Source: Escherichia coli (GTDB lineage Bacteria; Pseudomonadota; Gammaproteobacteria; Enterobacterales; Enterobacteriaceae). From it: a stretch of DNA of 64,000 nucleotides. The stretch lies in the NCBI RefSeq assembly GCF_003991155.1, contig NZ_CP031294.1. One strand, given 5' to 3'. Shown here piece after piece: positions 1,716 to 62,612 of this stretch. Numbering within the stretch: the first letter of the stretch is position 1; every line of letters starts with the position of its first letter. The notes beneath the pieces were generated by a model. The model searched no databases and had not been told where the DNA came from. It saw only the letters and a list, made by a program, of their open reading frames with translations. The translations under genes and the position numbers were made by a program.

Positions 1716-1764
1716 CCTGTCAGCGCCACAATGATAGTAAATTAGTACTTACTTATCCAGATAC

Positions 1765-2100
1765 TTAAGCCTCAAATACTTGTCTGAATGTAGCAGTTAA
1801 GACACAGTACCCCTGATATCGCTTGACCGTATGACTGTCACATACAACTACAATCCGTTTTCCTCTTGGATTAACCCAATAGAACGACTCAACGCCTGCT
1901 CGCTCAGTCAGGAAGTCATCGATTGCATTAATTTCGTTGTATGATCTGGTAAAGGTTAACGACCATTCTTCTTTAATACGATTAAGACCTTGAGCCTGTC
2001 GCTGCTCGTAGTCATCACCAAAATTAAGTACCGTTACATTCGGTTTTACGCTTTTTTCAGATTCGTAATCTGGATACCAATTAAACGTTTGTCTTTCCAT
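1765..2100 (-). CDS. minor tail protein, lambda gpM-like
   Basis: 111 aa, FGDDYEQR...GLN pattern as in lambda M; immediately downstream of tape measure gene. Confidence 0.7.
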   Translation of the reverse strand: MERQTFNWYPDYESEKSVKPNVTVLNFGDDYEQRQAQGLNRIKEEWSLTFTRSYNEINAIDDFLTERAGVESFYWVNPRGKRIVVVCDSHTVKRYQGYCVLTATFRQVFEA

Positions 2101-2142
2101 CTCACATCCTTGTGAGACTGCCCCGGTCGGGGCAGTCGATAG

Positions 2143-5100
2143 TTAGTTACGTTGAGTGTTTGGGTTGAGTGATCCGCCAGGGCGTTTCTCTTGAGCGATA
2201 GTCTCAAGCGCGATTGCTTTCATCCGTTGAGCGGCATTGTTCCATATGCTTTCTGTATCGCCGGATTCAGTTGTGCTACCGTCACTATGGACGTTGATCT
2301 CAATTGATACAGGAGAAAGAACATTTCCTCCTCCACTCATACCATCGGTACTGAGCGTTACAGGGATTGTTCGACCATCAGGCAATGGAACATACGCCTC
2401 ATTCATATCGCCTTCCCCAAACAACGCCAATTGAGGTGAGTTGGCGATACCGCCTTTCTGGTATGCCCGGAGCGGGATCACGCCGTCTTTTCCGAATATG
2501 CCACCATTTGCAAACTTCGGAATTGCAGGAATACCATTCGTGCCATCGGCAGCAGAACTGGTCAGATTGTTGAACCCGGAAGTTGAGCCAGAAGAACCGG
2601 ACATCAATCCATCGAATCCACCACCAGCCCATACTGAAACCAAACCAGATGCAACTGTCGCGCCGAAATTCAACCACTTATTACCAGAGCCGGAAGCATT
2701 AGCTCCAAGCATTGCAAACGCGGCAGACAGAGCGCCGGTAACAGAGCTGAGGTTCTGCATCGAGAAGATGGAGTCCTTCACTGCTTTTGTCTCAGCATCT
2801 TTGGCTTCGGTGCTATTAAATAGCCCTGATACCCAGCTACCAATCGCATTTGTTGCTGTGCCAATTGCGCTGGTGGTCTGCTGTGTCGTTTGCCCCAATC
2901 CAGTTACCGAACTGGACGTCTCCTTCGTGGCTTCTCCTACCGACTTGTCGCCATTAACAGTGTTGCTTATGCGCACACCTTGATTGGCAACTGCGGAAGC
3001 AACCCCGGTGAGCAAATTACCACTCTGTGAACTACCAGCTGCGGTGGTTCCCATCCCCAACATGTTCATTAGAGGCAGCGTGATCTGCGACTTCACGACC
3101 ATATTGGTGATATCTTTCAAAATGGACTGAGATAGGCTGGAGAAGCTCATCTTCCCGTTAATAACGAAATCAGTCAGGACATCAGTTAAGCCACTAAACA
3201 AATCAGTCCAGGTGCTTTCGATCTGCTCTGCCAGATTTTCGTATTCCAGTGCCAACTTCTGCGTCGCAGTCCCCGTCTCTTTAATAAGCGCGGTATTGCC
3301 AGCAGCAATCAGTTGATTGATTTTCTTTGTATAAAGCGCCACAACTTTAGGATCAGACGCCTTATCACGAAGTTCTATCAACGCTTTGAGATTGCGGTTG
3401 TAGGTGTCTTCGAAATCAGCAACTTTCTCTTCGCGAGACGGCGTATAGCCAGCACTAATAATGGAATCCGCCTCCGGTGCCCAAGTGGAGATCATCTGCT
3501 CAACATTGCGGCGATTAAACATCTCACGATATTCAGGTGTCGCATTTTTGAGGTCTTCAAGACGTTTTTTCGCCTTGTCGATCATCTCTTGAGTGATGAA
3601 CTCGTTAGGAACCGCATTAGCCAAATCTGTCAGCGATTTCGTTGTATCGCGAAGAGACTGATCAAACGATACCGTAGCCTTAGAGCTTTCACCCATTTGC
3701 CCCATAAGCTGATCGGCTTTGTCCAGAGCCTTCTGGTATCCGGCTGCCAGTTTCTGTTGCGCTGCCTGTTCCTTCTTGGCCGCACGCTGCGAGGCGTTAG
3801 CTGATCGTTGGGCTGCTTTCTCGGCAGCTGCTGCATCCTGTTCACGAGCTTTAGTAAGTGCGGCAATGGCTGCGGCACGCTCTTCATCGCTCATTTTCTC
3901 CAGAGAGCTGGCACTGGATGCTTTCTGCAAATTAAGCTGCGTCTTGAGTTGTTTAGGCCCAATAATCGGCTTACCTTCGAAGTCCATCATCGGAGTGCCG
4001 TCAGGCAAAGTACGCTGATAAGTCGCAGAATCCATCTGGTTTCGCATATATTGCGCCAACGCCTTCTGAGCAGCTTTATCAGTTGTACCTAACCCAAGAA
4101 CAGTCCCCTGGTTTGACATTACGCCCTTACCAGTTTTGGCCGCGTTATCTCTCTCGAACTCTGCCTGAGTAAGTTCCTGAGCAACGGCTTCCAAATGCTC
4201 CTGATAACCACGAATACTGCCTTGCAGTTTCTGGATTTGCTCGGTATTGCCATCCTTTTTGGCTTTTTCAAGCTGATCATTAAGAGTCGCGATTTGCTTC
4301 TCGGTCGCATTCTTACGAGAAGAAAGTGAATCAACCAGTTTTTGCGCAGGCTCCAGATAGCTTTTGTTTACCGTTTCACGTAACGGTGCCAATAGCTTGT
4401 TCTTTTCGTCATCTGAAAGTGAACCGTCATCATTGATTTTCTGGATCTTATCCAGAGCCTCCTGCCGGGCTTTCACGAATGTTGCCGCGAAAATCTGGTT
4501 TTCCGCTCGAATTTTCTCAATCTGAGATTCGGCAGCCTCTTTAGCCAAACGCTTTGCTACAGCGCCGTCACCAAGAGCTATCGTGCCGGTTATCTTTTGA
4601 TACTCTTCCTGATTTTTTTTCAGGCGTGCTTCGATGTCAGCCTTCGACTCTTTGTGAGTAATAACACCGGCAGAGTTAGATACGTAATTAACACCCTCAC
4701 CAGTTTTTAATGCTCGTTGATCAGCAAGAATCTGCTTTTCGAGCTTTTCTGCGCGGTCGGCCATTTGTGCACGTTTGGCCGCCGTCATCGCCTCTGGTAT
4801 TTTCCTAATCTCGTCAACGACCTTTGAAGTTTCGCTGCGGAGCATGGTCATGTACGTGATTAGGCCAGCAACAGCTACAGTGGCAACTGTAAATGCTGCC
4901 CCTATAGGGTTTGCTGCAATGAACGCCGTTAATCCAGCAAAAGCGCCTTTAAGCCCCGTAATCGCCCCACGGATGGCGAAAATAAGAGAGGGGATCGGAG
5001 CCAGCCCCATACGTGCCGCACGATTGAATCGGGTTACTGCTGTAGCGCCGAGGTTAAATGGAGTCTGTATGGCGGTCGCCATCGTGGCAAAGGTGCTAAC

Positions 5101-6735
5101 CATCTGGCTGCCTGCGCCAACTACCCCCATGATCCCTGCTCGCATCAGTTTGAACGCAACCATCGCGGCCACGACCTTACCGAGATTAATTACCAGCTCT
5201 TGGTTCTTTGCTAACCATTGAGCAAGCTGACGCAACCCATCGATTGCCGTCGTTAACCCCGAGCCTAAAGAATTGGCAAACGAAATCCCTTCGGCGCTAT
5301 TCATGATTGAAGCCAGTTCTTTCATCCCCTTCGATAGAGAATCCAGATATCCGGCCTGACCAACCCGATCAGCAAATAACGTGAATGACGTCTGAAGTTG
5401 CGCCAGCGCACCTGTGTAGGTTTGCATCATGTCTTTCGCTGCGTTCTCATTCTCCGCACGCAGACCAACAAACATCAGAGACAACGCCTGTTTTGCCTCA
5501 ACCGTACCGCTGGCAACGGCTTTAGTCAGTTCCCCCATAGTGATGCCTGCGGCGTCTGCCATTGCCTGCATCGCGTTAGGAACGGCTTCACCTAATTGCT
5601 GACGTAGCTCTTCCATTGACACAACGCCCTTACCGGACATCTGCTGAACGGCCACAGCCGCACGTTTCAACAGCTCACTATCACCACCAAAACGAGCAAC
5701 GGAGTCCACCAGCGCCTTCAGAGAACCATCGGTTGGATCTAAGCCAGCAGAACGAAACTTCACGAAGGAATCTGTTAACGCCTGCATCGCGAACGGCGCA
5801 TTTTGCGCCATGTCTACGATGTACTTCATATCATCAGCGGCAGCCTGGCCCGGGTTGGACTTCTCCTTATTCAACCCTCGAAGCATCACCCGCATACGTT
5901 CCATTTCGGCCGCAGCTTCAACAATAGGCTTCTGCCACCCAAACATGATGTCAGTAACCGTTCTGGCTGCATCTCCGATCTCGCCAAGCAGGAAAATGTT
6001 GCCACGAAGGCCAGAGAACATACCTCCTTCGTTACTTTTACCGCTATGGCCAGAAGCGCCGCTACGCCGCCCGCTACCACCATCGCCACTTCCAGATGTA
6101 CGAACGCGTACCGGCTTGCTAATCAGTTGCTGACGTCCGATAACTTCGTCCATCTGCTCACGAACCTTTTTCAGTCCCTCGGCAGCCTGACTCGTTGTGA
6201 CACCCCAATTACTGAGTCGCTTCGTCGTGGTATTAAGGCGCGTATTCATGCCACTCACGGACGCAGAGGCTTCTTTGGCCTCCGTACCAAAGCGGCTTGC
6301 GCTTTTGCTTGCATAGGTCGCCCAATCAGAGAAATCATTTAGCTCTGATTGCACTTTACGTAATGACGCGGTGAGTTTATCTACTGAAGAAGTTGTCGTA
6401 TCGACGCGCTCAATCAGGGCTTTAAGACCAGAATTGAGGCTGGTGATGTTGCCACGCATTTTACGCGTAGCATCTGAAGCAAGCTCAAAACCGGCAGCTA
6501 CATCCTGTAGTTTATCTGCCGTAGAATCGAGCTTGCTTTCCAGAACGCCAATGATACGGGCGACCGAACCCAAAGAGCGTTCAAAGGTTTGGATTTTTTG
6601 AGCAGGCTTTGTTACCTGCTCACCAAATCGAGTAAGCAGTTTCCCCGCACGATCGATTGACGCTGTAAACTGTTTGTCTTCCAGCGACAGGATAAACTCT
6701 ACGTTTTGTGACATTCCCTTGTCATCCTCTGCCAA
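2143..6735 (-). CDS. tail tape measure protein
   Basis: 1530-aa ORF, long alpha-helical/coiled-coil Ala/Gln-rich regions, hydrophobic segments, located between G/GT chaperone and M/L/K genes. Confidence 0.85.
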   Translation of the reverse strand: MAEDDKGMSQNVEFILSLEDKQFTASIDRAGKLLTRFGEQVTKPAQKIQTFERSLGSVARIIGVLESKLDSTADKLQDVAAGFELASDATRKMRGNITSLNSGLKALIERVDTTTSSVDKLTASLRKVQSELNDFSDWATYASKSASRFGTEAKEASASVSGMNTRLNTTTKRLSNWGVTTSQAAEGLKKVREQMDEVIGRQQLISKPVRVRTSGSGDGGSGRRSGASGHSGKSNEGGMFSGLRGNIFLLGEIGDAARTVTDIMFGWQKPIVEAAAEMERMRVMLRGLNKEKSNPGQAAADDMKYIVDMAQNAPFAMQALTDSFVKFRSAGLDPTDGSLKALVDSVARFGGDSELLKRAAVAVQQMSGKGVVSMEELRQQLGEAVPNAMQAMADAAGITMGELTKAVASGTVEAKQALSLMFVGLRAENENAAKDMMQTYTGALAQLQTSFTLFADRVGQAGYLDSLSKGMKELASIMNSAEGISFANSLGSGLTTAIDGLRQLAQWLAKNQELVINLGKVVAAMVAFKLMRAGIMGVVGAGSQMVSTFATMATAIQTPFNLGATAVTRFNRAARMGLAPIPSLIFAIRGAITGLKGAFAGLTAFIAANPIGAAFTVATVAVAGLITYMTMLRSETSKVVDEIRKIPEAMTAAKRAQMADRAEKLEKQILADQRALKTGEGVNYVSNSAGVITHKESKADIEARLKKNQEEYQKITGTIALGDGAVAKRLAKEAAESQIEKIRAENQIFAATFVKARQEALDKIQKINDDGSLSDDEKNKLLAPLRETVNKSYLEPAQKLVDSLSSRKNATEKQIATLNDQLEKAKKDGNTEQIQKLQGSIRGYQEHLEAVAQELTQAEFERDNAAKTGKGVMSNQGTVLGLGTTDKAAQKALAQYMRNQMDSATYQRTLPDGTPMMDFEGKPIIGPKQLKTQLNLQKASSASSLEKMSDEERAAAIAALTKAREQDAAAAEKAAQRSANASQRAAKKEQAAQQKLAAGYQKALDKADQLMGQMGESSKATVSFDQSLRDTTKSLTDLANAVPNEFITQEMIDKAKKRLEDLKNATPEYREMFNRRNVEQMISTWAPEADSIISAGYTPSREEKVADFEDTYNRNLKALIELRDKASDPKVVALYTKKINQLIAAGNTALIKETGTATQKLALEYENLAEQIESTWTDLFSGLTDVLTDFVINGKMSFSSLSQSILKDITNMVVKSQITLPLMNMLGMGTTAAGSSQSGNLLTGVASAVANQGVRISNTVNGDKSVGEATKETSSSVTGLGQTTQQTTSAIGTATNAIGSWVSGLFNSTEAKDAETKAVKDSIFSMQNLSSVTGALSAAFAMLGANASGSGNKWLNFGATVASGLVSVWAGGGFDGLMSGSSGSTSGFNNLTSSAADGTNGIPAIPKFANGGIFGKDGVIPLRAYQKGGIANSPQLALFGEGDMNEAYVPLPDGRTIPVTLSTDGMSGGGNVLSPVSIEINVHSDGSTTESGDTESIWNNAAQRMKAIALETIAQEKRPGGSLNPNTQRN

Positions 6736-7108
6736 ATATTTGCATCAGTTGCTCTTTGGCGTCAGGGTCTGCCTTATCCTGGCTTGGATCGTAGACTTTA
6801 TCTGTTACGACTGGTCTTCCAATCCTGAGTTGCAAACCCTCCATGAACGCCTTCACAGCCTCGCCATCCGCCTGGGACGCACGAGCGACTTGTAAGTTGC
6901 GGACATCCTCTTCCGCACGCAGACGGTCTATATTGCGACTGAGCATCCAGAACATCGTGAGAGGAACGTTCAGTAGCTCTAATGGCGACACGGCGTAGTG
7001 AGCAACTACACGACTGAAATAGAATCCGAGATCTATTGAGACGGTCCTTGTCCCGGATTCATCGCGGGAAATTACTTTGCCCCTTCGCCAGCCGCTTTTT
7101 CGTTTTCT
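6722..7108 (-). CDS. tail assembly chaperone T-frame extension (putative -1 frameshift product GT)
   Basis: Frame is -1 relative to G ORF, open from 7108 down to stop at 6722, overlaps G 3' end and tape measure start; canonical arrangement upstream of tape measure. Confidence 0.5.
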   Translation of the reverse strand, partial: RKRKSGWRRGKVISRDESGTRTVSIDLGFYFSRVVAHYAVSPLELLNVPLTMFWMLSRNIDRLRAEEDVRNLQVARASQADGEAVKAFMEGLQLRIGRPVVTDKVYDPSQDKADPDAKEQLMQIFGRG

Positions 7109-7389
7109 TCATCAATCACTTCCATAGCGAAGGTGAAGATCTGCTGGAGTTGCGGAACAGTCAGTTTTTCAAGAACTTCGTCAGGTACTGAAGGGATAAC
7201 CTTACGAACCAGATCTGCATAAGCTGTCACTTGCTCAACAGGAGACATGTTCATGAGATCTTTGCCTTCCATCTGCTTGATGGAAACGAACAGACCTACC
7301 GTCATTTCAACGATGGGATATTCCTGACCGCCAAATTTGATGCTTTTCTTCGGAGGCAGAATGGAATCGAGATCGAGTAATTTGGTCAT
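7072..7389 (-). CDS. tail assembly chaperone (gpG-like)
   Basis: 105-aa acidic protein between major tail protein and tape measure genes; overlapped by -1 frame ORF. Confidence 0.6.
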   Translation of the reverse strand: MTKLLDLDSILPPKKSIKFGGQEYPIVEMTVGLFVSIKQMEGKDLMNMSPVEQVTAYADLVRKVIPSVPDEVLEKLTVPQLQQIFTFAMEVIDEENEKAAGEGAK

Positions 7390-7444
7390 TGGTTAAAATC
7401 CTTTTAAAAGAGAGGCCCATCCTGAGCCTCTGCTTAATTACTGA

Positions 7445-8191
7445 TTAATCTGCGGGGTTAATCGTTACTGACTTAGTTGCCTTCTTACCACCGCTATTGC
7501 TGGTGAAGGAGATATTTGTAGAACCCTGCGCCACACCACGTACCAGACCCGTTTGATCTACCGTGGCCTTTTCCTGGTCTTCGGATTCCCAAACACCGGT
7601 TTTGTCTGCGGCATCAGCTGGAGTGATTTCGGCTGTCAGTTGCACAGTTTCTCCAGCTTTTACGGTTGGAGATTCCGGTGAGATCGACACAGTTTTTACC
7701 GGTTTAGGACCGCTCATTTTGCCCAGAACGCCTTCATCATCCGGGTATGCGCTGAACTGAACAGAGAACACACGAACATCATCAGACTGGTAGGTCATAG
7801 TGAAGTTGCCCGCGGTTGCCGCTTTCGGGATGGTCAACACATAGTCGGTGGTGTCCTGCGGAGTCAGAACCAGCTCCTTCGCCACATCAATCAGGTTAAC
7901 GCCCTGTGCAGATGTGATCGTGACAGAGTTGTCATCTTCGCTCAGAGTAGAACCAGGCATCAGGTCAACCATGTTTTGGAGTACAGACTCAGCCAGAGGC
8001 GCGGTGATGGTAATGTTGCGCCCCTGAACTAATTCGGAAATTACGGTCTGCCCCAACTGATCGACGGTGACTTTCAGCGTTTCAGTGGCTACTTCAACCT
8101 GAACACCACCTTTGGTGTAACCCAAATCCACACCACCAAACGACACCTTACAGGCACCAAGTTTGATGTTTTTTACATGGGTATTAGACAT
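7445..8191 (-). CDS. major tail protein with C-terminal Ig-like (Big_2) domain
   Basis: C-terminal segment ...VKAGETVQLTAEITPADAADKTGVWESEDQEKATVDQTGLVRGVAQGSTNISFTS is a Big_2-type Ig fold as in lambda gpV; start set at ATG 8189-8191 which has AAGGAG RBS (ORF track start 8227 lacks RBS). Confidence 0.7.
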   Translation of the reverse strand: MSNTHVKNIKLGACKVSFGGVDLGYTKGGVQVEVATETLKVTVDQLGQTVISELVQGRNITITAPLAESVLQNMVDLMPGSTLSEDDNSVTITSAQGVNLIDVAKELVLTPQDTTDYVLTIPKAATAGNFTMTYQSDDVRVFSVQFSAYPDDEGVLGKMSGPKPVKTVSISPESPTVKAGETVQLTAEITPADAADKTGVWESEDQEKATVDQTGLVRGVAQGSTNISFTSNSGGKKATKSVTINPAD

Positions 8192-8265
8192 TGATGGAAA
8201 ACTCCTTTTTCCGTTAATTCTACGCATTCATTGCGCTAATAGTAAGTATATACTTACTAATTGAG

Positions 8266-8649
8266 TTAATTCAATAAATAGCCAGCAAATTCAACAGGAA
8301 TGCCTGCTTCTATTAATGCCCCATCATTTTTGGGATAAATGATTGGCATCGCCATCGGTCGTACAAGTCGAAAATAAACACCACCAGATTCCGTTTCCTC
8401 TACTGGAAACATCTCAATGATTTTATGGGCTTTCTCAACCGTCGTAGTAATTGACGAACCACGCACAATGATTGTGAATGATTCGTGATAAAAGCCCTGT
8501 AGCTCATGATCGATGCTGATGCCGGTATTTGGGTTAATAAGCAGGACGCCAGATTTCACATTGGCAGGCAAGTAGTGACAGAAAATGTCAGTCCCGACCG
8601 TGCCAATCTTTGCCTTCTGCATCAAACTTGCAAACGCTTCAATAAACAC
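8266..8649 (-). CDS. hypothetical head-tail/tail completion protein
   Basis: Position between head-tail genes and major tail gene; start placed at GTG 8647-8649 preceded by GAGAGG, avoiding overlap with upstream ORF. Confidence 0.4.
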   Translation of the reverse strand: MFIEAFASLMQKAKIGTVGTDIFCHYLPANVKSGVLLINPNTGISIDHELQGFYHESFTIIVRGSSITTTVEKAHKIIEMFPVEETESGGVYFRLVRPMAMPIIYPKNDGALIEAGIPVEFAGYLLN

Positions 8650-8650
8650 A

Positions 8651-9124
8651 TTAACCTCTCGTAAATCCGGCTTTTCTGGCAGCCTCAAGAATCGCTTCTG
8701 AGAACTGCTTCTCGCTAATTTCCACCGCTCTTTCCAGAAAGTGTGGCCCAACACGGGGTTTAACACCGGCAATTGGTGGGTTTGTCACGTTCTTCATTCG
8801 AGAAAGATAACCGAGTCGGTATTTACCCAGCTCCATGTACTTAGCATAGTCACCTACTTCTACGCCCGGATGCCCCTGACGTGGTTTTGCTCCAGACACA
8901 GAAAGCTCAATACGCAGCCCTGAATAACCTTCTTTAATCACCCTGGCAAAGATGGCTGTCTCCAGAGATCCGGTTTCCAGCGGGGCCATTGCACGGCTGA
9001 GACGCTCAACCAAACGCGCCAGCTTTTCCATGTCCCGGATAAGATATCGCTTAAATGCTTTCTGGCTGTTGTTGAGTCGATTCCCCGCACGTTTGAACTG
9101 ATGCGCATCGTATTTCAGACCCAT
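8651..9124 (-). CDS. hypothetical head-tail joining protein
   Basis: 157-aa ORF in structural operon, translationally coupled to neighbours. Confidence 0.4.
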   Translation of the reverse strand: MGLKYDAHQFKRAGNRLNNSQKAFKRYLIRDMEKLARLVERLSRAMAPLETGSLETAIFARVIKEGYSGLRIELSVSGAKPRQGHPGVEVGDYAKYMELGKYRLGYLSRMKNVTNPPIAGVKPRVGPHFLERAVEISEKQFSEAILEAARKAGFTRG

Positions 9125-9555
9125 ATATTCGCCCCTACTTCAAGATGCCCAGGTCTTCCTCGTAGCCCCCAGCGGCGATGAACACTGGACACCTTTAATT
9201 TTTGACCTTCAAGGATCAGCACATCATCAAGTTGTACAGCCGCTTCTAAAGGGACAACTAACACAGCATCAAACAGCTCCAGACTCGCCTTACCACGACT
9301 ACCAGAGCTATCAGCACGAACTGACGATTTCTCATTACTCTGTTCGAACTTAACCACGCCGACATTCGTCTTCCTGACGAATTGTAATTGCGCCTCGCCG
9401 TAAACGTTCTTTGCGCCAAAGCGGTAGATCGCAATTTCTGTTTGCCACGAAATATTCATGCTCTCTCTCTGTTGTTGTCGGTCGCTCTCATTACTGGCCA
9501 AAAACCCTTTCGACCAAAAGTAAATAATGCGACTGGCGTTACGCACGGCGAACAA
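9115..9555 (-). CDS. hypothetical head-tail joining protein
   Basis: 146-aa ORF, 10-bp overlap with downstream gene; structural operon context. Confidence 0.4.
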   Translation of the reverse strand: MFAVRNASRIIYFWSKGFLASNESDRQQQRESMNISWQTEIAIYRFGAKNVYGEAQLQFVRKTNVGVVKFEQSNEKSSVRADSSGSRGKASLELFDAVLVVPLEAAVQLDDVLILEGQKLKVSSVHRRWGLRGRPGHLEVGANIWV

Positions 9556-10806: not shown

Positions 10807-10850
10807 AACGCATTCTCTCTACATGGGCGGCTTTCGCCGCCCAATATTGA

Positions 10851-51954: not shown

Positions 51955-51955
51955 A

Positions 51956-54099: not shown

Positions 54100-54176
54100 G
54101 CTAGTTTTGTTCCTTCTTAATTCTTGTGATCCATTGTGGCCCAGCGTTGCCAGGCCACATAATGCTTTGTATCGGT

Positions 54177-55319
54177 TTACAGGTCTGCAAACTGGCTTAG
54201 AGAAGCCTTGTCCACGGTAGAATCGATCTGACCTACCAGATATGTGCTTTGCTCTGCCTCTTGTGGTGCAATTTGCAGTGTGTCGGTTAACAACCACTTG
54301 TTCATCCAGACCAGCGGATCAGTGGTAACTTCTGGAAATAAAGCCTTCAGGCCAAGACGATTCATAGCCAGATTGGTTCGGTATTTTACATAGGTCTTCA
54401 GAATATCCGCGTTTAAACCAATCATCGAACCGTCTTTGAAGAGATAGTCTGCCCAGTTCATTTCTTGTTCGGCGACTGATTTCATGGTGTCGTAAATGAC
54501 GTTTTCTTCATCAGCAGCAATCTCTTTCCACAATAAACCTTCGCGACCGGTACGCATGAAGCGGATCATGCGTTCAGTTCCTTCGCAATGCAGAGCTTCA
54601 TCACGGGCAATAAAGCGCATAATTTTGGTGTTACCCTCAAGCAACTTCCGTTCGCCAAAGGCAAACGTACATGCAAAACTTACATAGAAACGGATCGCCT
54701 CAAGCGCATTAATGGACACTAACGTGCGGAAAAGCTGACGGTGCAAAGGATATGGCTCCCAGCCATATTCATTTACGTACAGACGCTCAAATTCCTTCTC
54801 GCCTAACGACTGGCGATCGCAGGTCATCCCATAAAGCCTGTCATATTCAGCAGAGATACTGATGGCTCGGTTGATGATTTCTTCATCCGTAACAATACCG
54901 TCAAAAACAATACTCGGATCGTCCACCATGCCACGAATAATGTGGGTGTAGCTGCGGCTATGGATAGTCTCAGAGAAAGACCACGTTTCAACCCACGTTT
55001 CCAGTTCAGGAATAGAGATAAGCGGCAGCAGAGTTGCGTTTGGGCTACGTCCCTGAACTGAATCGAGCAACGTTTGATAACGGAGATTACTCAGGAAAAT
55101 GTGGCGTTCGTGGTCCCGCAGCTTCGTATTGAAGTCGATGCGATCGCTCGAAATATCAACTTCTTCCGGCCGCCAGAAGAAAGACAATTGACGTTCAATC
55201 AACTTTTCAAAATCACGGTATTTTTGTTGATCGTAACGAGCCACGTTGACAGATTGTCCGAGGAACATAGGCTCTTTGGTTGCATCATTAGCACCCAAAC
55301 GGAACGTTGAATATGACAT
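54177..55319 (-). CDS. nrdB: ribonucleotide reductase class Ia beta subunit
   Basis: 380 aa, strongly similar to E. coli NrdB ([20 protein letters not shown]..., C-terminal YLVGQIDS). Confidence 0.95.
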
Positions 55320-55425
55320 GTGTTTTTCCTTTTTCTTTTTTGGTGCGTTTAAACAGGTTGTTATCTTATGTGTTTAAACAAGGCTTACAAATCAAAGAGA
55401 AGGTGGGGATATCCCCCACCATATG

Positions 55426-57741
55426 TCAGATTTTGCAGGCTCCGTCGCACTCATCTTCTGGCTCGACGGCTACAGCTTGCGTCAGTGGATTCTGCGGTTC
55501 GTCGTCATCACGCTTTCCTGCCCCATCTCTGGTGTTGTGGTAGTAAAGCGTTTTAACTCCCATCTTGTAGGCGAGAAGCAAATCTGACAGTAGCGTCATC
55601 ATTGGGACTTTATCGCCTTCAAAGCGAGAAGGGTCATAGTTGGTATTGGCTGAAATAGCCTGGTCAAAGAACTTCTGGATGATCGCCACCTTTGTCAGAT
55701 AGCCGCGGTTGTCCGGCATATCCCACAGGTATTCATACTGTTCCTTCAGTTTTTCAAACTCAGGCACGACCATCTTAACGATGCCGTCCTTAGAAGATTT
55801 CACCGACACCGGTCCACGAGGCGGTTCGATGCCGTTGGTGGAATTAGTGATCTGGCTGGAAGTCTCGCATGGCATTTGTGCCGTCAGTGTGGAGTTGCGA
55901 AGGCCGTATTTTGCAATACGTTCACGCAGTTCTTCCCACGGCATCTTTAACTCAAAGTTGGTTTCGCCACTTTCGTCTAATGAAGAACGGTAATGGTCGA
56001 TCGGCAACTGACCAATTGCGTACTTGGTCTGCTCAAACCAGTCACACTCACCTTTTGCTTCAGCAAGTCGGCAGCTGGCATCAAGAAGGTAATACTGGAT
56101 AGCTTCGAACGTTTCATGCACCAGTTTATTGCCAGCGGTATCAGAATAACGAACGCCATTCTTTGCCAGGTAATAAGCAAAGTTGGTTACACCAATTCCC
56201 AAGCTACGACGAGCTTTGGCAGGCACTTCGGCTGCCTCCATCGGATAGTCTTGATAATCCAGTAACGAATCCAGTGCAGCAACGGCATAGAACGCCACCT
56301 CTTTAAGAGACTCCAGTGAACGGATGGCTCCGAGGTTAAAAGCGGATAAAGTGCATAGCGCGATCTCACCGTTCGGGTCGTCGGTAAATGCCAGTGGACG
56401 AGTGGGTAGAGTGATCTCCATGCACAGGTTTGACTGGCGAACAGGTGCAAGAGCAGGAATGAAAGCGCCATGCTCGTTAATATGATCGACGTTCGCAATA
56501 TAAATTCGGCCCGTGGACGCTCGTTCCTGCATCAGAGATGAGAACAGCTCAATGGCAGGTACTGACTTCTTGCGAATTGAATCATCGGCTTCGTATTTAT
56601 GGTACAGCTTTTCAAACAGATCCTGGTCTGTGAAGAAGGCTTCGTACATATCAGGCACATCATGCGGGCTGAACAGAGTGATGTTCTCGCTTCTGACGAG
56701 TCGACGGTACATTAGACGGTTACTCATGACGCCGTAATCAAGATGGCGAACGCGGTTTTCATCAATACCACGGTTATTTTTCACCACCAGCAGACTTTCA
56801 ACTTCAAGATGCCAGATCGGGTAAAACGCTGTTGCTGCGCCACCACGAACACCACCTTGCGAGCAAGATTTAACAGCAGTCTGGAAATGCTTCAGGAATG
56901 GAATAACTCCGGTATGGGTGGCTTCACCATTGCGGATCTCACTGCCCAGCGCACGGATACGGCCAAAACCAATACCAATTCCAGCACGACGTGAAACGTA
57001 GTCGATAATTGCGGCTGAAGCTGCACTAATCCCTTTCAGACTATCGCCAGACTCAATCAGCACACAACTGGAGAACTGACGGGTTGGAGTACGGACGCCG
57101 GCCATGATTGGTGTGGGCAGAGACAGTTTGAACGTACTTGTAACGTCATAGAAACCTTTGACCATCTCCATACGTGTTTTGCCCGCGCAGTCGTCTTCCC
57201 AATTCTGGAACAGACACATGCCCACCAGCATATAGATATGTTGCGGGCCTTCGTGAATCTCACCAGTAACACGGTTTTGAACGAGGTATTTGCTTTGCAA
57301 CTGCACCGTAGCTGCATAGCCAAAAAGATCGTCACGTTTAGGCTTAATGTAATTGCCGAGTTCTTCGATCTCTTCAAATGAATAATGTGTCAGCAAATCC
57401 TTGTCATAAACGCCCTTGTTAACGTTCTTGACAATGTGTTGGTAGAAGTTCGGATAGTCGTAACGACCGAAGGCATCTTTGCGGATTTTAAAAATGTTCA
57501 GGCGGGCAGCCACCTGCGAGTAATTTGGTGCATCTGGTGAGATCAAATCAGCGGCAGATTTAACCAAAGCCTCATGCAACTGGCTGGTGGTAATCCCATC
57601 AAAAATGCTGGCCGCAGCTCCCATTGCTACAGCGGATGCGCTTACACCTCGAATGCCTTCTACGCCATACATTACGACGCGGTTGTATTTTTCTTCGGAT
57701 AACGGCTCTGTTTGGCCGTTACGTTTTACGATGCTTATCAT
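55426..57741 (-). CDS. nrdA: ribonucleotide reductase class Ia alpha subunit
   Basis: 771 aa, ATP-cone N-terminus, SLPTPIMAGVRTPTRQFSSCVLIE, NLCMEI, C-terminal CxxxxC tail. Confidence 0.95.
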   Translation of the reverse strand: MISIVKRNGQTEPLSEEKYNRVVMYGVEGIRGVSASAVAMGAAASIFDGITTSQLHEALVKSAADLISPDAPNYSQVAARLNIFKIRKDAFGRYDYPNFYQHIVKNVNKGVYDKDLLTHYSFEEIEELGNYIKPKRDDLFGYAATVQLQSKYLVQNRVTGEIHEGPQHIYMLVGMCLFQNWEDDCAGKTRMEMVKGFYDVTSTFKLSLPTPIMAGVRTPTRQFSSCVLIESGDSLKGISAASAAIIDYVSRRAGIGIGFGRIRALGSEIRNGEATHTGVIPFLKHFQTAVKSCSQGGVRGGAATAFYPIWHLEVESLLVVKNNRGIDENRVRHLDYGVMSNRLMYRRLVRSENITLFSPHDVPDMYEAFFTDQDLFEKLYHKYEADDSIRKKSVPAIELFSSLMQERASTGRIYIANVDHINEHGAFIPALAPVRQSNLCMEITLPTRPLAFTDDPNGEIALCTLSAFNLGAIRSLESLKEVAFYAVAALDSLLDYQDYPMEAAEVPAKARRSLGIGVTNFAYYLAKNGVRYSDTAGNKLVHETFEAIQYYLLDASCRLAEAKGECDWFEQTKYAIGQLPIDHYRSSLDESGETNFELKMPWEELRERIAKYGLRNSTLTAQMPCETSSQITNSTNGIEPPRGPVSVKSSKDGIVKMVVPEFEKLKEQYEYLWDMPDNRGYLTKVAIIQKFFDQAISANTNYDPSRFEGDKVPMMTLLSDLLLAYKMGVKTLYYHNTRDGAGKRDDDEPQNPLTQAVAVEPEDECDGACKI

Positions 57742-57756
57742 GTATCACCAAATAAA

Positions 57757-57782
57757 GAGGGCCACTATATTTAGTGGCCCAT
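57757..57782 (-). terminator. hairpin terminator candidate between resolvase-like gene and nrdA
   Basis: gggccacta-aatat-agtggccc followed by T-rich run on minus strand. Confidence 0.45.
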
Positions 57783-57814
57783 GTTAATAGATAAGCACTT
57801 ACCTATCAATGAGA

Positions 57815-58384
57815 TCAAATGAGAGACTTGAGAACATCGCGCACCTGGCGAAACTGATCTGTTTGCATACCGGTATGGATGGCAGCCACCGCATCAGCCA
57901 AATGTTCGTTTTTGTTCACGAGAACATCCTGTCCAGATTGCTTACGACGCAGCCACGGTGCTTTAGGGTGTTTTTTCGTAGCCCACTGGATAATCTCTTC
58001 TTTCGATGTAGTAAGTTTATTGCCAACAAAATGCTTGATTTCGTTTGGAGTGACCTGGATCAATGGCTTATCCACACACGCAAGTACACCGATACAAATA
58101 CCGTAAGACGTCTGCGAACGAGAGTTTTGGCTTCCAACCGGTAGTTCACAAAAAACCATATTCGCCTTATCAATGATTGGCTTCGCAACACGCCATATTT
58201 CACTGGCACGGCGCAGATCGTCACTGTTCACACGAACGGTCTTTTTGTTACTCCCCGCTTTAGTCTCAACAAGAGTAAGGCCGTGAATCTCAAGTTCGTC
58301 CGTTTCAAGGTCTAAAGTGCCCACAGCAAGCCCAAAGTTGCTCATAGAGGGATCAACACCAACTACGCTGATTTTTTTACTCAT
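57815..58384 (-). CDS. RuvC-like Holliday junction resolvase (candidate)
   Basis: N-terminal VVGVDPS and downstream acidic residues in RuvC-like spacing; 189 aa. Confidence 0.5.
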   Translation of the reverse strand: MSKKISVVGVDPSMSNFGLAVGTLDLETDELEIHGLTLVETKAGSNKKTVRVNSDDLRRASEIWRVAKPIIDKANMVFCELPVGSQNSRSQTSYGICIGVLACVDKPLIQVTPNEIKHFVGNKLTTSKEEIIQWATKKHPKAPWLRRKQSGQDVLVNKNEHLADAVAAIHTGMQTDQFRQVRDVLKSLI

Positions 58385-58393
58385 ATAGTCTCC

Positions 58394-59137
58394 TTACCAT
58401 GTTCCCCATAGAGGGTTTTCCAATAATCTCGCCTCCAACGAATTGGTTACTATTGCCGTTTGCAACGTTGGTTGGGGATAGTTTGCAAAGTCTGAATACT
58501 CATTTTCCTGCGTGACACGTTTATCTACGGCATGTTTAACGCCACTTGCTATGAAATGACGCATGATGCCCAACAGCCTCCGACTGTCTGCACTATCGTT
58601 TGCTAAAACATGAGGGAGCTGAAGTTCGATTTCTACCATTTCTCCATACTTACCAACAAACTGTAGTTTGTCCGCACTGTACTTTTTATCCCTCCTTTGG
58701 ATAAGGAAACCAGTAAAAGCATCACCTGGCGATGCCAAACTATCCACCCGCTTATTGGCAAGTCGAATAAGGTTCGTGAAAGCCATACAGTGATGCGCAC
58801 CCATTCCCCCAAAGAACCCTTCGCTATTAATGTTAAGATCTTCAGTTTCATGGGATGCAATAAATCCAGGCCCGACGTTGGGAAGATATCCCCCCTCAAC
58901 AAAAGGATTAATCAGGATCGGCGCAATACATCCAGGTGGTAGTGATTTCAAACTTTGCATCAATGGTGTCTCGGATATTAGACCAAGCAACGCGGCGAAT
59001 TGTACTCCGTCAATATTGTTGCTGCCCCACAGAATACGTGGAGCCGAACCATTGGAAGTATGCCCATTGATCAGTTTTATCGACTGCATCACTGCAAATA
59101 CCTGCAAAAACTGCGAGCGGCTTAATTTAAACGACAT
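58394..59137 (-). CDS. hypothetical protein
   Basis: 247-aa ORF overlapping SbcC-like gene start by 11 bp. Confidence 0.4.
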   Translation of the reverse strand: MSFKLSRSQFLQVFAVMQSIKLINGHTSNGSAPRILWGSNNIDGVQFAALLGLISETPLMQSLKSLPPGCIAPILINPFVEGGYLPNVGPGFIASHETEDLNINSEGFFGGMGAHHCMAFTNLIRLANKRVDSLASPGDAFTGFLIQRRDKKYSADKLQFVGKYGEMVEIELQLPHVLANDSADSRRLLGIMRHFIASGVKHAVDKRVTQENEYSDFANYPQPTLQTAIVTNSLEARLLENPLWGTW

Positions 59138-61043
59138 AGCTGCGCCCCTCTTTAACTTCCAGCGTAATAGTTTCCCGGAACCATGACTTCATCTCTTTAT
59201 GGGAGATAATCAGCACAGTACCTCGCTCGCGAGCTTTGGACTCCAGAATACCCATGAGGCGTTCAAGACCGGCTGTATCGAGTGCATCGTCAATTTCGTC
59301 GCCGATAAACAAATCGATGTTTTTACTCGCCCGGTTACTAACCAGATCCTGCAATGCCAAAGAACACGCAATGCGAACCTTCCGCTTCTCACCACCAGAG
59401 AGGGTTTGGAACGACTTACTTGAACCTTTCTTCTGCACACTAATGTTGAATATGTCGCGATACTCACCTTTTTTAGTGGTATCCATCGTCGACCACTCAG
59501 CAGTAATATTCCCGTCAGACAACGTATTGAGATACTCGGCAGTGCGTGTATTCAGGAAAGGCGTAACAGACGTCAAAATATGAGAACGCACCCCGGCAGG
59601 AGAGTAGACCTGACGAGCTTTTTCCAATAGCAACGTTTGTTCCTGAATAGCCTTCAACTCATCTTTTAAGGACTTGAAGGTAGACTTACTGGATACCAGG
59701 TTATCTTCGTGTCTGGCGATAAGAGCAATAAACGGATTAATCTCTTTTGATATACGATCGACCTCAGTACGAGCACGAGTCACAAGAGACTCAATAGCAA
59801 CAACCTCCTTCTCACGATGACGCAAAGATGAGAGTTGTTTCGTAAGCTCTTCAATCCGGGCAATGATAGCCGTTACATCAGGTGTCGTTTTAACAAGGGC
59901 AGACTCAATGCTTAACGCTTTCTCAAGATTCGTTTTGTGTTTAGCCATTGCCTCTGCAAGTGTCTTCGCCTGACCAATTTCCTGACGTGCTTGTTCAATG
60001 AAATTCTCCTTCACCGTTGATAGATCTTCTTCGCAGTAGGCTTTGCCACAAGTAGGGCATGGTGATCCCACTTTAGTACCAACCTCTTCTGCTTTGGTCT
60101 TAAAATTACGCGCGCGGTTCATTGCATCAGCCTGACTATTTTCTGTAGCTTTGATGCTTGCCCGAATATCAGTTATCGCACCACGAACTTTGAGCAACTT
60201 GGCGTCATGTTCTTCTTTTGAGGCTAACTTTTTGCGCTCACTTTCGATTGCCTTCTCGGTATCACGTATCTGTTCGGGAAGAGTGCGGATCTCAAGTTCA
60301 ACTTCCGTTAACTCAACTTCGGCACTGGCCAGCCCAGCCAGGGCATCGTCATAACGTTTAGAACGCTCTTGCTCCCATGATTCAGAGGAGGCTTTCGCTG
60401 ACTCAATTTCTGACTGTGTTGCCTCAATGGTCGAGATTGTCGACTCCAATTTGGTTTTAACCACATCCATACGTGCGGCAGCTGCATTAGCTCGCTCACG
60501 AGCAATAGCGTAGGCGCGTGTCAGTCTGTCAACGCCAGCGGCTTCTTCTACGATGGTTTTGAGGTTTTTGTCGGACATTCCAGGTAAATCTGGCATAGCT
60601 TCTTGGCTCGCATAGATGGAAGCCATGAAAACCTCTTTAGATGCACCGATCAGACGCTCGACGAACTCCTGCGTCAGCGCATCTTTGCCTTTCGTCATAT
60701 CGCCATCTTCACCACGAACGATAAGACGATTTTTGAACTCTTTGTGTTTACGGTGACGAATGATTGCGTATCTCTTGCCTTCATCCTCGATGGTTACTGC
60801 AACACGACAGTTCTTTTCATGGTCGGTAGACAACACATCGTCACCCTTCACACCATGAGCTGTTTCGCCATAAAGACACCACATCAGGCTATTCATTAGA
60901 GTTGACTTTCCAGAGCCATTACTTGATGCGGAACTATCATCACTATTAACACCCTGAATGAGCACTAAACCACGCTGATCTAACTCGACCTCCGCGCTGG
61001 CGATAGCCATAAAATTCTCAACCTGGAGCTTTAAAAACTTCAT
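59127..61043 (-). CDS. SbcC/Rad50-like recombination ATPase
   Basis: N-terminal Walker A GVNSDDSSASSNGSGKST, central coiled coil with CPTCGK zinc hook, C-terminal signature/Walker B region. Confidence 0.8.
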   Translation of the reverse strand: MKFLKLQVENFMAIASAEVELDQRGLVLIQGVNSDDSSASSNGSGKSTLMNSLMWCLYGETAHGVKGDDVLSTDHEKNCRVAVTIEDEGKRYAIIRHRKHKEFKNRLIVRGEDGDMTKGKDALTQEFVERLIGASKEVFMASIYASQEAMPDLPGMSDKNLKTIVEEAAGVDRLTRAYAIARERANAAAARMDVVKTKLESTISTIEATQSEIESAKASSESWEQERSKRYDDALAGLASAEVELTEVELEIRTLPEQIRDTEKAIESERKKLASKEEHDAKLLKVRGAITDIRASIKATENSQADAMNRARNFKTKAEEVGTKVGSPCPTCGKAYCEEDLSTVKENFIEQARQEIGQAKTLAEAMAKHKTNLEKALSIESALVKTTPDVTAIIARIEELTKQLSSLRHREKEVVAIESLVTRARTEVDRISKEINPFIALIARHEDNLVSSKSTFKSLKDELKAIQEQTLLLEKARQVYSPAGVRSHILTSVTPFLNTRTAEYLNTLSDGNITAEWSTMDTTKKGEYRDIFNISVQKKGSSKSFQTLSGGEKRKVRIACSLALQDLVSNRASKNIDLFIGDEIDDALDTAGLERLMGILESKARERGTVLIISHKEMKSWFRETITLEVKEGRSYVV

Positions 61044-61272
61044 ATAACACCTCTGATACCGTGTGTTAGCTTTTGGCCTTCTTTCAATCTGAACTCCGTA
61101 TGCGCCGGGAAGGATCTGCGCCTCAATACGCCTTTTCTTGTTAACCTTCCAAGATAAAACGCTACGGGATTTCCTTGTGGCGGGTAGGGCTTGTGAAACA
61201 TCACCGTCTGGCCTCGTTCAAGTCTTTTCATCGTGATGGCAAAGTCTCGAAAGCTCCCATAACGACTTTGCT

Positions 61273-62358
61273 TCACACAGCCTCCGAACTCTCCGCTTCG
61301 GTGAGGATTTCCTGACACAAAATATCCAACTTGCTCAGATCAAATCCGCCGTCAGTATCGTGGACAATCTTGCAATAAGCAGATACCGACTCTCCCAAGC
61401 TATCGATTTTGCTGGTTTCCGTTGTGCTTGCTGTCCCTTCCATCATTGATGACTTACGGATGAAGTTGCACACGACACCTTTTGCGCCCATTGTTTTGAG
61501 GATATTCTGGTACTTAATGCCTTCTTCATCGTTCTCAATTACGGCGCGGAAACGCACGTAGTTGCCGCGAATTTGGTCATCGGCAACATAATCTTCCAGG
61601 TTAATGAATTTAGGCGCACTGGTTTCGTAGTGACTGAAACTGCCGTCCGGGTTTACGATCATGTAACCAGCCAGAGATCCAACATCTCCCCAATTTTGAT
61701 GGGTCAGTGCACCGACACTGATAACTCCAGGAATGACCTCTTTGTGGTTGTGGTAATGCCCACTAAGCACGAGACGAAAGCCGATATCCTTTAACTCCTG
61801 CGCATCGATACCGACGTCAGGCATTGTTGGAATGGCTTTGTTAATGGATGTATGGATAACAACGTCATGATTATCACCTTCTACGCTCTTACGTAATGCT
61901 TTCAGATCGCTGATAAGCTCCGCATGATTGTTACGCCAGCTAATCAGGTGGACAGTCACATCACCAATTTTTATTGAGTGTGGGCGCTTGCCACATACGA
62001 TTACCACGCCGATAGAACTCAGCGATGCTGCTGCGTTGGCGCTATATACTGAATCGTTGGTTTCAAGATCGTGATTACCGGCCAGCATTACTACTGTCAG
62101 ATCAAGCTCGTTGATAATCCACTTGTACGTTTCAGTTACGTAATGCAAAACAGAAGGGGACACAGTTCCTCGGACGTGAAATGTATCACCGGCAACCAAC
62201 ATGTACTTACAACCGGCCTTCTTCATGGCGATGGCTGCTTCTTTCGTTGCTTCCAACTGTATTTCAAGTCTGGAGTTAAGCCCCTCAGCGTTCGTCGTGG
62301 AGAACGCATCCCATTTGTGGTAGTGGCAGTCAGAAATGACGCCGTATGGCAAAGTCAT
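61273..62358 (-). CDS. SbcD/Mre11-like nuclease
   Basis: Calcineurin-like phosphoesterase motifs (SDCHYH, AGDTFH, GNHD). Confidence 0.8.
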   Translation of the reverse strand: MTLPYGVISDCHYHKWDAFSTTNAEGLNSRLEIQLEATKEAAIAMKKAGCKYMLVAGDTFHVRGTVSPSVLHYVTETYKWIINELDLTVVMLAGNHDLETNDSVYSANAAASLSSIGVVIVCGKRPHSIKIGDVTVHLISWRNNHAELISDLKALRKSVEGDNHDVVIHTSINKAIPTMPDVGIDAQELKDIGFRLVLSGHYHNHKEVIPGVISVGALTHQNWGDVGSLAGYMIVNPDGSFSHYETSAPKFINLEDYVADDQIRGNYVRFRAVIENDEEGIKYQNILKTMGAKGVVCNFIRKSSMMEGTASTTETSKIDSLGESVSAYCKIVHDTDGGFDLSKLDILCQEILTEAESSEAV

Positions 62359-62612
62359 GTGTTTTTCCTTTGTGGTTATTTTGATACAAATTCTAAGAGC
62401 AATGAGGAGGTAAACAACTATGCATAACGGTATGTTAGGAATGAAACGAGCGCCTTAATATACAAAATATATAAGTAAGTATATACCTATTTATCGTGGC
62501 GCAACTTTGCTTGTCTGTATGACTAAAAATAAGACAGGATCACTGTAGAACGCTATGAGAGCTATTTTGAGGGGGCGTAGATTCTATCTACGCCAATATA
62601 CGATCTGGAGGG

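Follow-up and report, generated by a model that had tools for sequence, protein, structure and literature searches.

Results

A palindrome repeated along an SSU5-like phage-plasmid

The stretch of Escherichia coli DNA studied here (64,000 nt of contig NZ_CP031294.1; hereafter the window) is an SSU5-like phage-plasmid, 98–99% identical to Escherichia phages Cyrano and CMS-2020a, and it carries many copies of a palindrome with the core TARGTA-N6-TACYTA, the subject of this work. By megablast, positions 7000–12000 matched Cyrano, which is pLF82 of E. coli LF82, at 99.3% identity, phage CMS-2020a at 98.4% and Salmonella phage SSU5 at about 80%. According to the Cyrano annotation, tail, head and terminase genes occupy 1–17.1 kb on the minus strand, followed by an operon of ParB-like and ATPase genes (17.3–20.5 kb), a helicase operon on the plus strand (20.6–25 kb), a region of small open reading frames (ORFs) with metG, MinD-like and UmuD-like genes and, in the window, a type I hsd block (26–46 kb), and replication and nucleotide-metabolism genes on the minus strand (46–64 kb). 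For counts over a full-length genome of 108 kb, we appended the other 44 kb of Cyrano to the window.

Seeded expectation-maximisation and centre alignment defined the motif as a palindrome of fixed register and 24–26 bp (tGATARGTAAGT|ACTTAYCTATCa), with a TA step every 4 bp and an information content of 24 bits; its best-conserved bases are T-9, A-8, T-5 and A-4, together with their mirror images. The first-pass annotation had described a family TAAGTA-N-TACTTA with a variable spacer, a description that the fixed register replaces, because the 4-bp periodicity of the sequence (TAAG TAAG TACT TACT TA) puts TAAGTA in two registers and makes N appear variable. The motif was built by k-mer enrichment, then with seeded and finally with cross-trained matrices; to avoid circularity, the window was scanned with a matrix trained on SSU5 only.

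The SSU5-trained matrix found 14 sites of at least 10 bits in the window, compared with 0.19 in dinucleotide shuffles of the window and an expectation of 0.045 in shuffles of AT-rich intergenic DNA alone. All but one of the 14 are intergenic (binomial p = 2e-12), in DNA of which about 10% is intergenic; over the whole joined genome we counted 26 copies, 25 of them intergenic (p = 3e-23). The motif is thus enriched over shuffled controls, the check that the first-pass annotation had proposed, and is not equally frequent in coding DNA or in shuffled AT-rich DNA. The literal pattern TAAGTA-N0-10-TACTTA matches the window four times (0.01 expected), and TARGTA-N6-TACYTA with up to two mismatches does so 29 times (4.2 expected; the highest of 100 shuffles reached 10). 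Likewise, TAAGTAA/TTACTTA tops the intergenic enrichment of 7-mers in the window (16 of 21 copies, p = 1e-11), a few of the TAAGTAA copies being tandem stop codons. A matrix scan of 50 kb of phage P1 gave no match. Searching the literature by motif sequence, and by SSU5 and pHCM2 regulation, we found no paper describing the palindrome.

Placement and conservation of the copies

In the full genome, copies stand upstream of the portal gene, of the genes before and after the major capsid gene, and of those for the Ig-like tail protein, minor tail protein L, tail fibre and holin. Others precede the genes for ribonucleotide reductase, thyX, dam, sbcD and a gp32-like SSB, and further copies were found at a gene adjacent to primase, between the divergent ParB-like and helicase genes and at several small genes. 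This placement bears out the earlier view of a palindromic family just upstream of structural and replication genes. Conversely, the matrix scan of the full genome gave no site around the CI-like repressor and integrase genes, repA or the toxin-antitoxin genes.

The arrangement is shared by relatives. SSU5 contains 25 sites of at least 16 bits (0.02 expected), three of them within annotated genes, at matching gene junctions. Klebsiella phage pJN2-26, which is about 75% identical, has 13 sites in its first 50 kb, orthologous and often nearer to a perfect palindrome. In three-genome alignments of ten junctions, identical columns made up 80% of the motif and 64% of the flanks, which include coding ends, ribosome-binding sites and hairpins; at the thyX and sbcD junctions the motif is essentially the only alignable stretch. 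Sites also occur at orthologous junctions in a distant relative, a metagenome contig whose FljA-like protein (57% identical) is named to Nissabacter archeti, where the outer TAGGTA...TACCTA is kept and the AGTACT centre is not. The motif is therefore a real, strongly non-random and conserved family of cis-elements.

All 13 places listed in the first-pass annotation carry the sequences ascribed to them, including the perfect 20-bp palindrome at 8240–8259. Eleven are robust members of the family by two matrices (centres 1746, 8251, 11826, 15249, 20540, 46031, 47205, 48246, 53084, 57796 and 62480), whereas that at 28057–28073 is weak and that at 17281–17296 is recovered by the self-trained matrix only. 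Two copies absent from that list have their centres at 13742 and 47583.

Among the structural genes, the copy at 1735–1758 (centre 1746/1747; 23.2 bits, or 21.7 with the SSU5-trained matrix; SSU5 ortholog at 15598) lies between minor tail genes M and L, with a hairpin of 10-bp stem (1705–1727, minus strand) directly downstream on the gene strand. Copy 8251 (8240–8263; orthologs at SSU5 9076 and pJN2-26 47145) is upstream of the Ig-like tail protein gene, and CYRAN_12, downstream of it, is the leakiest late gene in the lysogen. Its overlap with a promoter-like site, already noted in the first-pass annotation, was confirmed by our scan, although the spacer is 18 nt (TTGAAT-18-TATACT) and not 16. 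Copy 11826 (11815–11838) is placed between the major capsid stop codon and an intrinsic terminator directly downstream (GGGTGGGC-TATAC-GCCCACCC-TTTTT; 11785–11812, minus strand). Copy 13742 (13731–13754), inside the 3' end of the portal gene, constitutes the spacer of TTGAAA-17-TATGAT (10 of 12 consensus matches) and is nearly identical at SSU5 3553 and pJN2-26 42102. Copy 15249 (15238–15261) takes up the 26 bp that separate the large terminase gene from the portal gene, and the portal ribosome-binding site overlaps its proximal end. A doubtful copy (17279–17302) forms the AT-rich centre of an inverted repeat of about 70 bp upstream of the small terminase gene; it contains the P1-type AAGTTACTT, and it scored 18.1 bits with the self-trained matrix only, not being found by the SSU5-trained one.

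Copy 20540 (20529–20552) occupies a 64-bp divergent gap, where it abuts TATTATAAT, between the minus-strand ParB-like operon, silent in the lysogen, and the plus-strand operon of the helicase, a 92-amino acid (aa) protein and an FljA-like protein, which the lysogen expresses. The weak copy TAAGTA-TG-TACTTA (28057–28080; 14.0 bits, SSU5-trained matrix) is upstream of a small ORF and has a possible ortholog at SSU5 93174 (12.9 bits).

In the replication and nucleotide-metabolism region, copy 46031 (46020–46043; 27–29.6 bits) lies just downstream of the RNase H gene and is kept at SSU5 79913 and pJN2-26 16851, along with the TATCTT downstream of it. Copy 47205 (47194–47217; 17–19 bits) has a degenerate left arm, and the motif-like centre 47583 (47572–47595), inside a large inverted repeat (47552–47610), is of doubtful membership. 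Copy 48246 (48235–48258; 28 bits) precedes an adenine methyltransferase gene, with 22 nt from centre to ATG, and copy 53084 (53073–53096) lies 26 nt upstream of thyX, preceded by a terminator (53144–53162). Copy 57796 (57785–57808; 30–31 bits) is upstream of the ribonucleotide reductase alpha gene, where it overlaps TTGATA-17-TAACAT and has a terminator-like hairpin (57759–57780, minus strand) directly downstream. Finally, copy 62480 (62469–62492), upstream of an sbcD-like gene, is a conserved island in a spacer that cannot be aligned elsewhere.

Between 28.1 and 46.0 kb there is no strong copy, so that the metG-hsd block is motif-free, as first proposed, except for one borderline palindrome 80 bp upstream of hsdM (AATTAGGTCATTCGTTACCTAATG, TAGGTC-N6-TACCTA; 36061–36084; 9.7 bits), which could be due to chance or could be a degenerate or variant operator. 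The gap says little about the idea, drawn from it in the first-pass annotation, of one phage backbone on both sides of the block, because the motif-free zone corresponds to the whole 18-kb accessory and small-ORF region and because SSU5, which has no hsd block, is motif-poor in the same region, with only two weak matches (12.5–12.9 bits) beyond 84 kb. The region is also site-free in Cyrano coordinates, and in the window it carries instead a second palindrome family, AAACAAnTTGTTT, described below. Comparison of window positions 22400–25000 and 36000–42300 with positions 99.5–103.2 kb and 82–88 kb of the Cyrano record indicated that the window contains the type I hsdMSR block in place of the Ea22-like genes of Cyrano, and that the two also diverge around the lipoprotein and FljA-like genes.

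The symmetry of the motif points to double-stranded DNA

We compared the two arms, and their folding, in 49 gene-oriented sites from two genomes. The arms mirror each other, with a correlation of base preferences of r = 0.97 and information contents of 13.1 and 11.2 bits, and the distal and proximal arms did not differ significantly in their matches to the consensus (Wilcoxon p = 0.48). Within sites, the arms showed no covariation (423 pairs versus 427 with shuffled partners, p = 0.79), nor was there any excess of sense-strand wobble among mismatched arm positions (G·U 50, A·C 52). Mean folding energies were weak on both strands (-4.0 kcal/mol sense, -3.9 kcal/mol antisense), many sites having a value of 0. 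Mirrored arms, together with the lack of covariation and of a G·U excess and with the weak folding, point to recognition by a symmetric protein on double-stranded DNA and not of an RNA hairpin. The motif itself is also unlike an intrinsic terminator, being AT-rich and following no U-run rule; separate terminators adjoin some of the copies.

Promoters, hairpins and expression in the lysogen

At +8 to +13 from the centre the motif contains a -10-like hexamer, TAT(C)AT, which belongs to the palindrome and is mirrored equally well upstream; we detected no independent -10 at a fixed downstream offset beyond this hexamer. Two sites match the sigma-70 consensus at 10 of 12 positions with the palindrome as spacer, TTGAAA-17-TATGAT at 13742 and TTGAAA-17-TATCAT after recA, and other sigma-70-type matches on copies are TTGAAT-18-TATACT (8251), TGGATA-17-TATCAT (1746) and TTGATA-17-TAACAT (57796). 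Overall, sigma-70-like sites were rarer than in dinucleotide shuffles, both in positions 1–20000 (9 versus 20.9 ± 4.8) and in positions 44001–64000 (18 versus 30.6 ± 5.8), which suggests selection against stray promoters within the lytic gene arrays. Five of the 11 gene-strand matches coincide with copies of the motif, which cover about 1% of the DNA.

Promoter hexamers are variously placed with respect to the motif, with the -10 inside it, the -35 inside it or the -10 at its centre. The -10 of the best predicted promoter falls at +8 or +11 from the centre in 13 of the 49 sites, and at copies 46031 and 87427 the motif provides a -35-like TTTACC or TTTACT, and a conserved -10 follows after about 17 bp. 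This variable geometry fits an operator better than an activator box. A split of early and late sites by the third base of the -10-like hexamer, seen in Cyrano and SSU5, was not kept in pJN2-26 and was rejected. In one third of the copies only 21–29 nt separate the centre from the start codon, so that the ribosome-binding site abuts the palindrome, and at some sites there is no room for a leader.

GC-rich hairpins begin 13–22 nt past the centre, on the gene strand, at copies 1746, 8251, 11826, 13742 and 57796 and at the tail-fibre copy. Three have U-runs and were called as terminators by the scan, and as structures they persist in SSU5 and pJN2-26 despite changes in sequence. Elsewhere the order is the usual one, with the terminator before the motif, as at 53144–53162 and after recA.

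RNA sequencing (RNA-seq) values for all Cyrano genes in five lysogenic conditions are available in supplement 2 of a study of LF82 (PMC9928086). In these data, genes adjacent to the motif were generally at or near background. CYRAN_4 and CYRAN_56 are among them: in LF82 lysogens grown in LB their expression was at the limit of detection or close to it despite their near-consensus predicted promoters, which suggests active silencing. In macrophages, leaky expression was apparent just downstream of some copies (CYRAN_12, 34, 56 and 60). As a separate observation, CYRAN_43, which encodes a 184-aa hypothetical protein outside the window (Cyrano record 40268–40822), exceeded the prophage background about 720-fold in expression, far more than any other Cyrano gene; SSU5 annotates no gene at the syntenic position.

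Candidate binding proteins

Conserved DNA-binding proteins are encoded across the family and are possible binders of the motif, as candidates only. One is an 88-aa winged-helix protein (17340–17606, minus strand), encoded by the last gene before the small terminase gene, whose residues through the predicted third helix (39–51) are invariant across the family. The other candidate is the 92-aa protein (22158–22436, plus strand), conserved in all the relatives examined and expressed in the lysogen at about 12-fold above background. Its N-terminus shows a pattern compatible with a ribbon-helix-helix, with a weak hhalign match (probability 4.7%) in the expected register and no sequence support from Pfam or the PDB.

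A Pfam scan of 59 uncharacterised ORFs returned only the FljA-family protein and the CI-like helix-turn-helix protein of Cyrano, CYRAN_45. The latter is unlikely to read the motif because SSU5 keeps the motif without an annotated counterpart: no integrase/repressor module is annotated at the syntenic position of SSU5, although a homolog was not directly searched for. Around the CYRAN_45 gene itself there is no matrix-scored site. The FljA-like protein is an unlikely DNA binder, its model being a tandem Hfq/Sm fold; the gene family is confined to SSU5-like elements, and the protein of the window is 78.5% identical to that of Cyrano and 100% to that of phage CMS-2020a (CP053388).

We also rejected the ParB-like proteins as site-specific binders, as their N-domain is homologous to ParB and the helix-turn-helix region aligns poorly. 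These two proteins with a ParB N-domain are encoded in an operon (17616–20531, minus strand), directly upstream of the terminase genes, together with the 88-aa winged-helix protein and two ABC-type ATPases, one of which carries an acetyltransferase-like domain as a fusion. In the first ParB-like protein GEHRWRAA replaces the CTP-binding GERRxRAA box. In the lysogen all genes of the operon but the last are silent. As to Lpa, the activator of P1 late promoters, tblastn against the window and the rest of Cyrano yielded nothing better than E = 23, and no member of its family was found by Pfam in the 59 ORFs or among the ORFs checked in PHROGs.

Discussion

A predicted operator within the promoters of a lytic regulon

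We propose that the palindrome is the operator of one phage regulator, placed inside the core promoters of one lytic regulon and probably acting in negative control, a reading to which we assign a probability of about 0.45. The operator would act as double-stranded DNA, bound by a single phage-encoded regulator of two-fold symmetry. Some 25 promoters with a built-in operator would make up a lytic regulon for replication, nucleotide metabolism, head, tail, tail fibre and lysis. With the transcription start taken about 20 nt past the centre, the palindrome would span approximately -32 to -8, its proximal end supplying the -10-like TAT(C/N)AT and its distal arm occupying the usual place of a -35; at a few sites a true TTGAAA or TTGAAT -35, spaced by 17–18 bp, would flank it. 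The bound protein would most likely silence these promoters during plasmid life, in the manner of P1 C1, RK2 KorB and P22 Arc, whose operators are multiple or located in a promoter spacer, and its release after induction would fire the regulon. In this model we infer the transcription start, the sign of regulation and the identity of the protein.

Several observations speak against such an operator. The TAT(C)AT hexamer lies inside a mirrored palindrome and is therefore not independent evidence for a promoter, and most copies lack a recognisable -35, as activator-dependent promoters typically do. The Lpa box of P1 has an identical AAGT/ACTT core, and the late genes of well-studied phages are under positive control (PMC10695390). 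No copy is found near the CI-like repressor of Cyrano, and the winged-helix candidate is barely expressed in the lysogen. At about six late-gene sites the order of motif, hairpin or terminator, and gene is odd for a simple promoter. Predicted sigma-70 strength did not correlate significantly with leaky expression in the lysogen (rho 0.31, p 0.17).

The main rival is an activator of the type of P1 Lpa, because P1 late promoters share the AAGT/ACTT core. The motif would then be the activator box of a class of promoters without a -35, on which a phage dimer, for instance the 88-aa winged-helix protein, centred near -20 would enable the host RNA polymerase to use a weak TATnnT -10. P1 late promoters consist of AAGT(G/T)ACTT-N4-TAnnAT without a -35, and in the motif AAGT|ACTT is followed after 3 bp by TAT(C)AT, the -35 missing at most copies. 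The positions upstream of terminase, portal, capsid-neighbour, tail, fibre and holin genes are also those expected of a late activator, the winged-helix gene is placed as lpa is relative to pacA in P1 and is nearly off in the lysogen, and there is no copy at the lysogeny switch. We nonetheless favour negative control over an activator box. Searches by tblastn, by Pfam (59 ORFs) and in the PHROG checks made turned up no Lpa homolog, and the geometry departs from that of P1 in lacking a central base, in a spacing of 3 bp instead of 4 bp and in a length of 24–26 bp instead of 9 bp. Moreover, genes of replication and nucleotide metabolism have copies in front of them too, the -10-like hexamer is mirrored within the palindrome, a translatable leader would not fit at some sites, and two near-consensus sigma-70 sites are silent in lysogens. 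The 4-bp half-site shared with P1 could itself be due to chance, at roughly 1 in 30 by our estimate.

A more specific version appears to us improbable: the palindrome would take the place of the -35 in a class of promoters peculiar to these phages, and their reader would be a minimal winged-helix activator with no relation to Lpa. SSU5-like and P1-like elements would in that case have converged on a grammar of AAGT/ACTT plus TAnnnT, perhaps through the same surface of the host RNA polymerase or SspA; the hairpins would stop transcripts from upstream, and those started at the motif would begin inside the hairpin and escape.

The hairpins could also mean that the motif is a site for bypassing terminators, either by a Q-like antitermination function loaded on the DNA or by a restart of transcription just past the terminator. 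Their distance of 13–22 nt from the centre at six copies, their conservation as structures and the U-runs of three of them are compatible with this, and at 11826 and 57796 a start about 20 nt past the centre lands in the 5' arm. However, no more than about one copy in four has such a hairpin, other copies have the terminator ahead of the motif, and Pfam found no Q-like protein among the 59 ORFs. We had considered a restart inside the hairpin in its own right; the predicted start is within the 5' arm in two genomes and not in pJN2-26, where the capsid hairpin begins after it, and the idea was kept as a minor rival only. As a whole, terminator bypass is very unlikely.

A function at the RNA level is if anything less credible still. 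The motif would then form a hairpin or a periodic (UANN)n tract within 5' leaders and between cistrons, where binding of the FljA-family protein, with its Hfq-like fold, would block translation or destabilise the mRNA. The FljA of Salmonella acts post-transcriptionally on fliC (PMC2652032), the FljA-family protein is expressed in the lysogen, and one third of the copies abut a ribosome-binding site. Against this stand the absence of covariation between the arms, G·U pairs no commoner than A·C, and weak folding, equal on both strands; mirrored purine-rich and pyrimidine-rich halves are unexpected if a single strand is read, and the family AAACAAnTTGTTT is much more similar to the fliC leader than the motif is.

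Lastly, we see equally little room for a host factor or a structural property of the DNA without a dedicated phage regulator, be it a nucleoid protein site, a loading site for ParB-like clamps or DNA made flexible by TA steps: conservation across phage-plasmids of Escherichia, Salmonella and Klebsiella and in the distant metagenome relative, TA steps every 4 bp, the resemblance of the outer heptamer TGATAAG to a Fur half-site and the start of two ParB-like genes, one keeping a GEHRWRAA box, beside copy 20540 would agree with it, but 50 kb of P1, which has the same hosts, are free of copies, the alignment of the ParB-like protein is poor in the helix-turn-helix region, 24 bits in a fixed register argue for a specific dimer, and we know of no enterobacterial factor with this 24-bp consensus.

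Other repeats of the phage-plasmid

The second palindrome family, AAACAAnTTGTTT, commonly extended to ...TTGTTTTCTTA, has members of 11–13 bp each at window positions 17186, 17211, 26328, 27563, 28466, 28950, 31585, 31636, 44403 and 45132, and three more in the rest of Cyrano (record positions of about 58601, 32086 and 29265). Exact matches to the 11-bp core AACAANTTGTT number 11 in the genome, and the 13-bp AAACAAWTTGTTT with up to two mismatches has 15 matches in the window, where four were expected. Copies lie mostly about 24–31 nt upstream of start codons. They are concentrated in small-ORF zones without the TARGTA motif, and some are found ahead of the small terminase, parA and helicase genes. 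A stretch of the leader of Salmonella fliC (ATCAAGTTGTAATTGATAAGG), an mRNA repressed by FljA, is identical to the core CAAGTTGT, and the family may be the operator set of the FljA-like protein.

Large inverted repeats, AGCCTGCTTCCGTATAT ... ATATACAGAAGCAGGCT, with an AT-rich, motif-like centre, were found at about 17255–17325 and at 47552–47610 in the window and at about 31185 in the Cyrano record, related arms being present at 49335–49379. There are three per genome, and they are conserved in SSU5 (33482 and 78328) and pJN2-26 (15294). One of them is situated between the winged-helix gene and the small terminase gene. Possible functions are an origin, a pac region or a bidirectional terminator.

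Significance

SSU5-like phage-plasmids are common elements that include pHCM2 of Salmonella Typhi, pLF82/Cyrano of adherent-invasive E. coli and many plasmids of Klebsiella and Enterobacter, which can carry resistance genes; our literature search found no paper on how these elements control the switch from plasmid life to lysis. As one 24-bp signal marks essentially every lytic transcription unit, it provides a map of the regulon from sequence alone. It can be used as bait in pull-down or chromatin immunoprecipitation experiments, as a reporter or as a target for mutation, and as a means to recognise members of the family and lytic modules in new sequences. Together, the motif, the second palindrome family and the Hfq-like FljA homolog suggest a control in two layers, one at the level of DNA and one at the level of RNA.

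Comparison with known systems

Operators of the MarR type are likewise palindromes, of 16–24 bp, read by a winged-helix dimer, and the family conserves a minimal winged-helix protein whose fold is MarR-like. Unlike MarR, the 88-aa protein has no dimerisation helices or ligand pocket, and its link to the motif is that of a candidate only. The operator of P22 Arc, in the spacer of Pant, is a palindrome between -35 and -10, where our motif would also lie, and the two share TAG-type boxes and ATGATAG...CTAT ends; a possible ribbon-helix-helix protein, weakly assigned, is encoded beside one of our sites. The Arc operator differs in being 21 bp long and in occurring as a single copy, whereas the motif is multi-copy.

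The stoperators of mycobacteriophage L5 resemble the motif in number (approximately 25–30 copies) and in location, in short intergenic gaps of co-directional lytic arrays, some of the gaps here, such as the 26 bp between terminase and portal, being too short for a separate promoter. L5 stoperators are asymmetric 13-mers with an orientation bias, whereas the motif is symmetric (r = 0.97) and many of its copies lie on promoter-like hexamers. P1 C1 and RK2 KorB likewise have tens of dispersed sites at or near promoters whose genes are silent in the carried state. The operators of C1 are asymmetric 17-mers, unlike our palindrome; the OB sites of KorB are short palindromes, as is the motif. KorB is a CTPase of the ParB family, whereas the ParB-like proteins encoded here have no convincing DNA-reading helix-turn-helix.

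The late promoters of P1 are also comparable in layout. In the P1 record they consist of a 9-bp '-22 region', AAGTGACTT or AAGTTACTT, followed by N4 and a -10 TAnnAT. Both systems have many dispersed copies in an enterobacterial phage-plasmid, and in both an inverted repeat with an AAGT...ACTT core would lie about 20 bp upstream of the start, with TAnnnT within 3–4 bp and no -35; in the motif that hexamer belongs to the palindrome and is mirrored upstream, and the -35 is lacking at most sites. In P1 the box measures 9 bp, has a central base and is spaced by 4 bp, as compared with 24–26 bp, no central base and 3 bp here, and the 9-bp inverted repeat AAGTNACTT near -22 is present, among near-motif sites, only at 17283. 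P1 restricts its boxes to late operons, while replication and nucleotide-metabolism genes are also served here. To judge from these sequences, the motif may work like a P1 late promoter, yet it is outside that family. The element is thus new in a clinically relevant and little-studied family of phage-plasmids, and it represents a kind of system that is familiar and, in principle, unsurprising.

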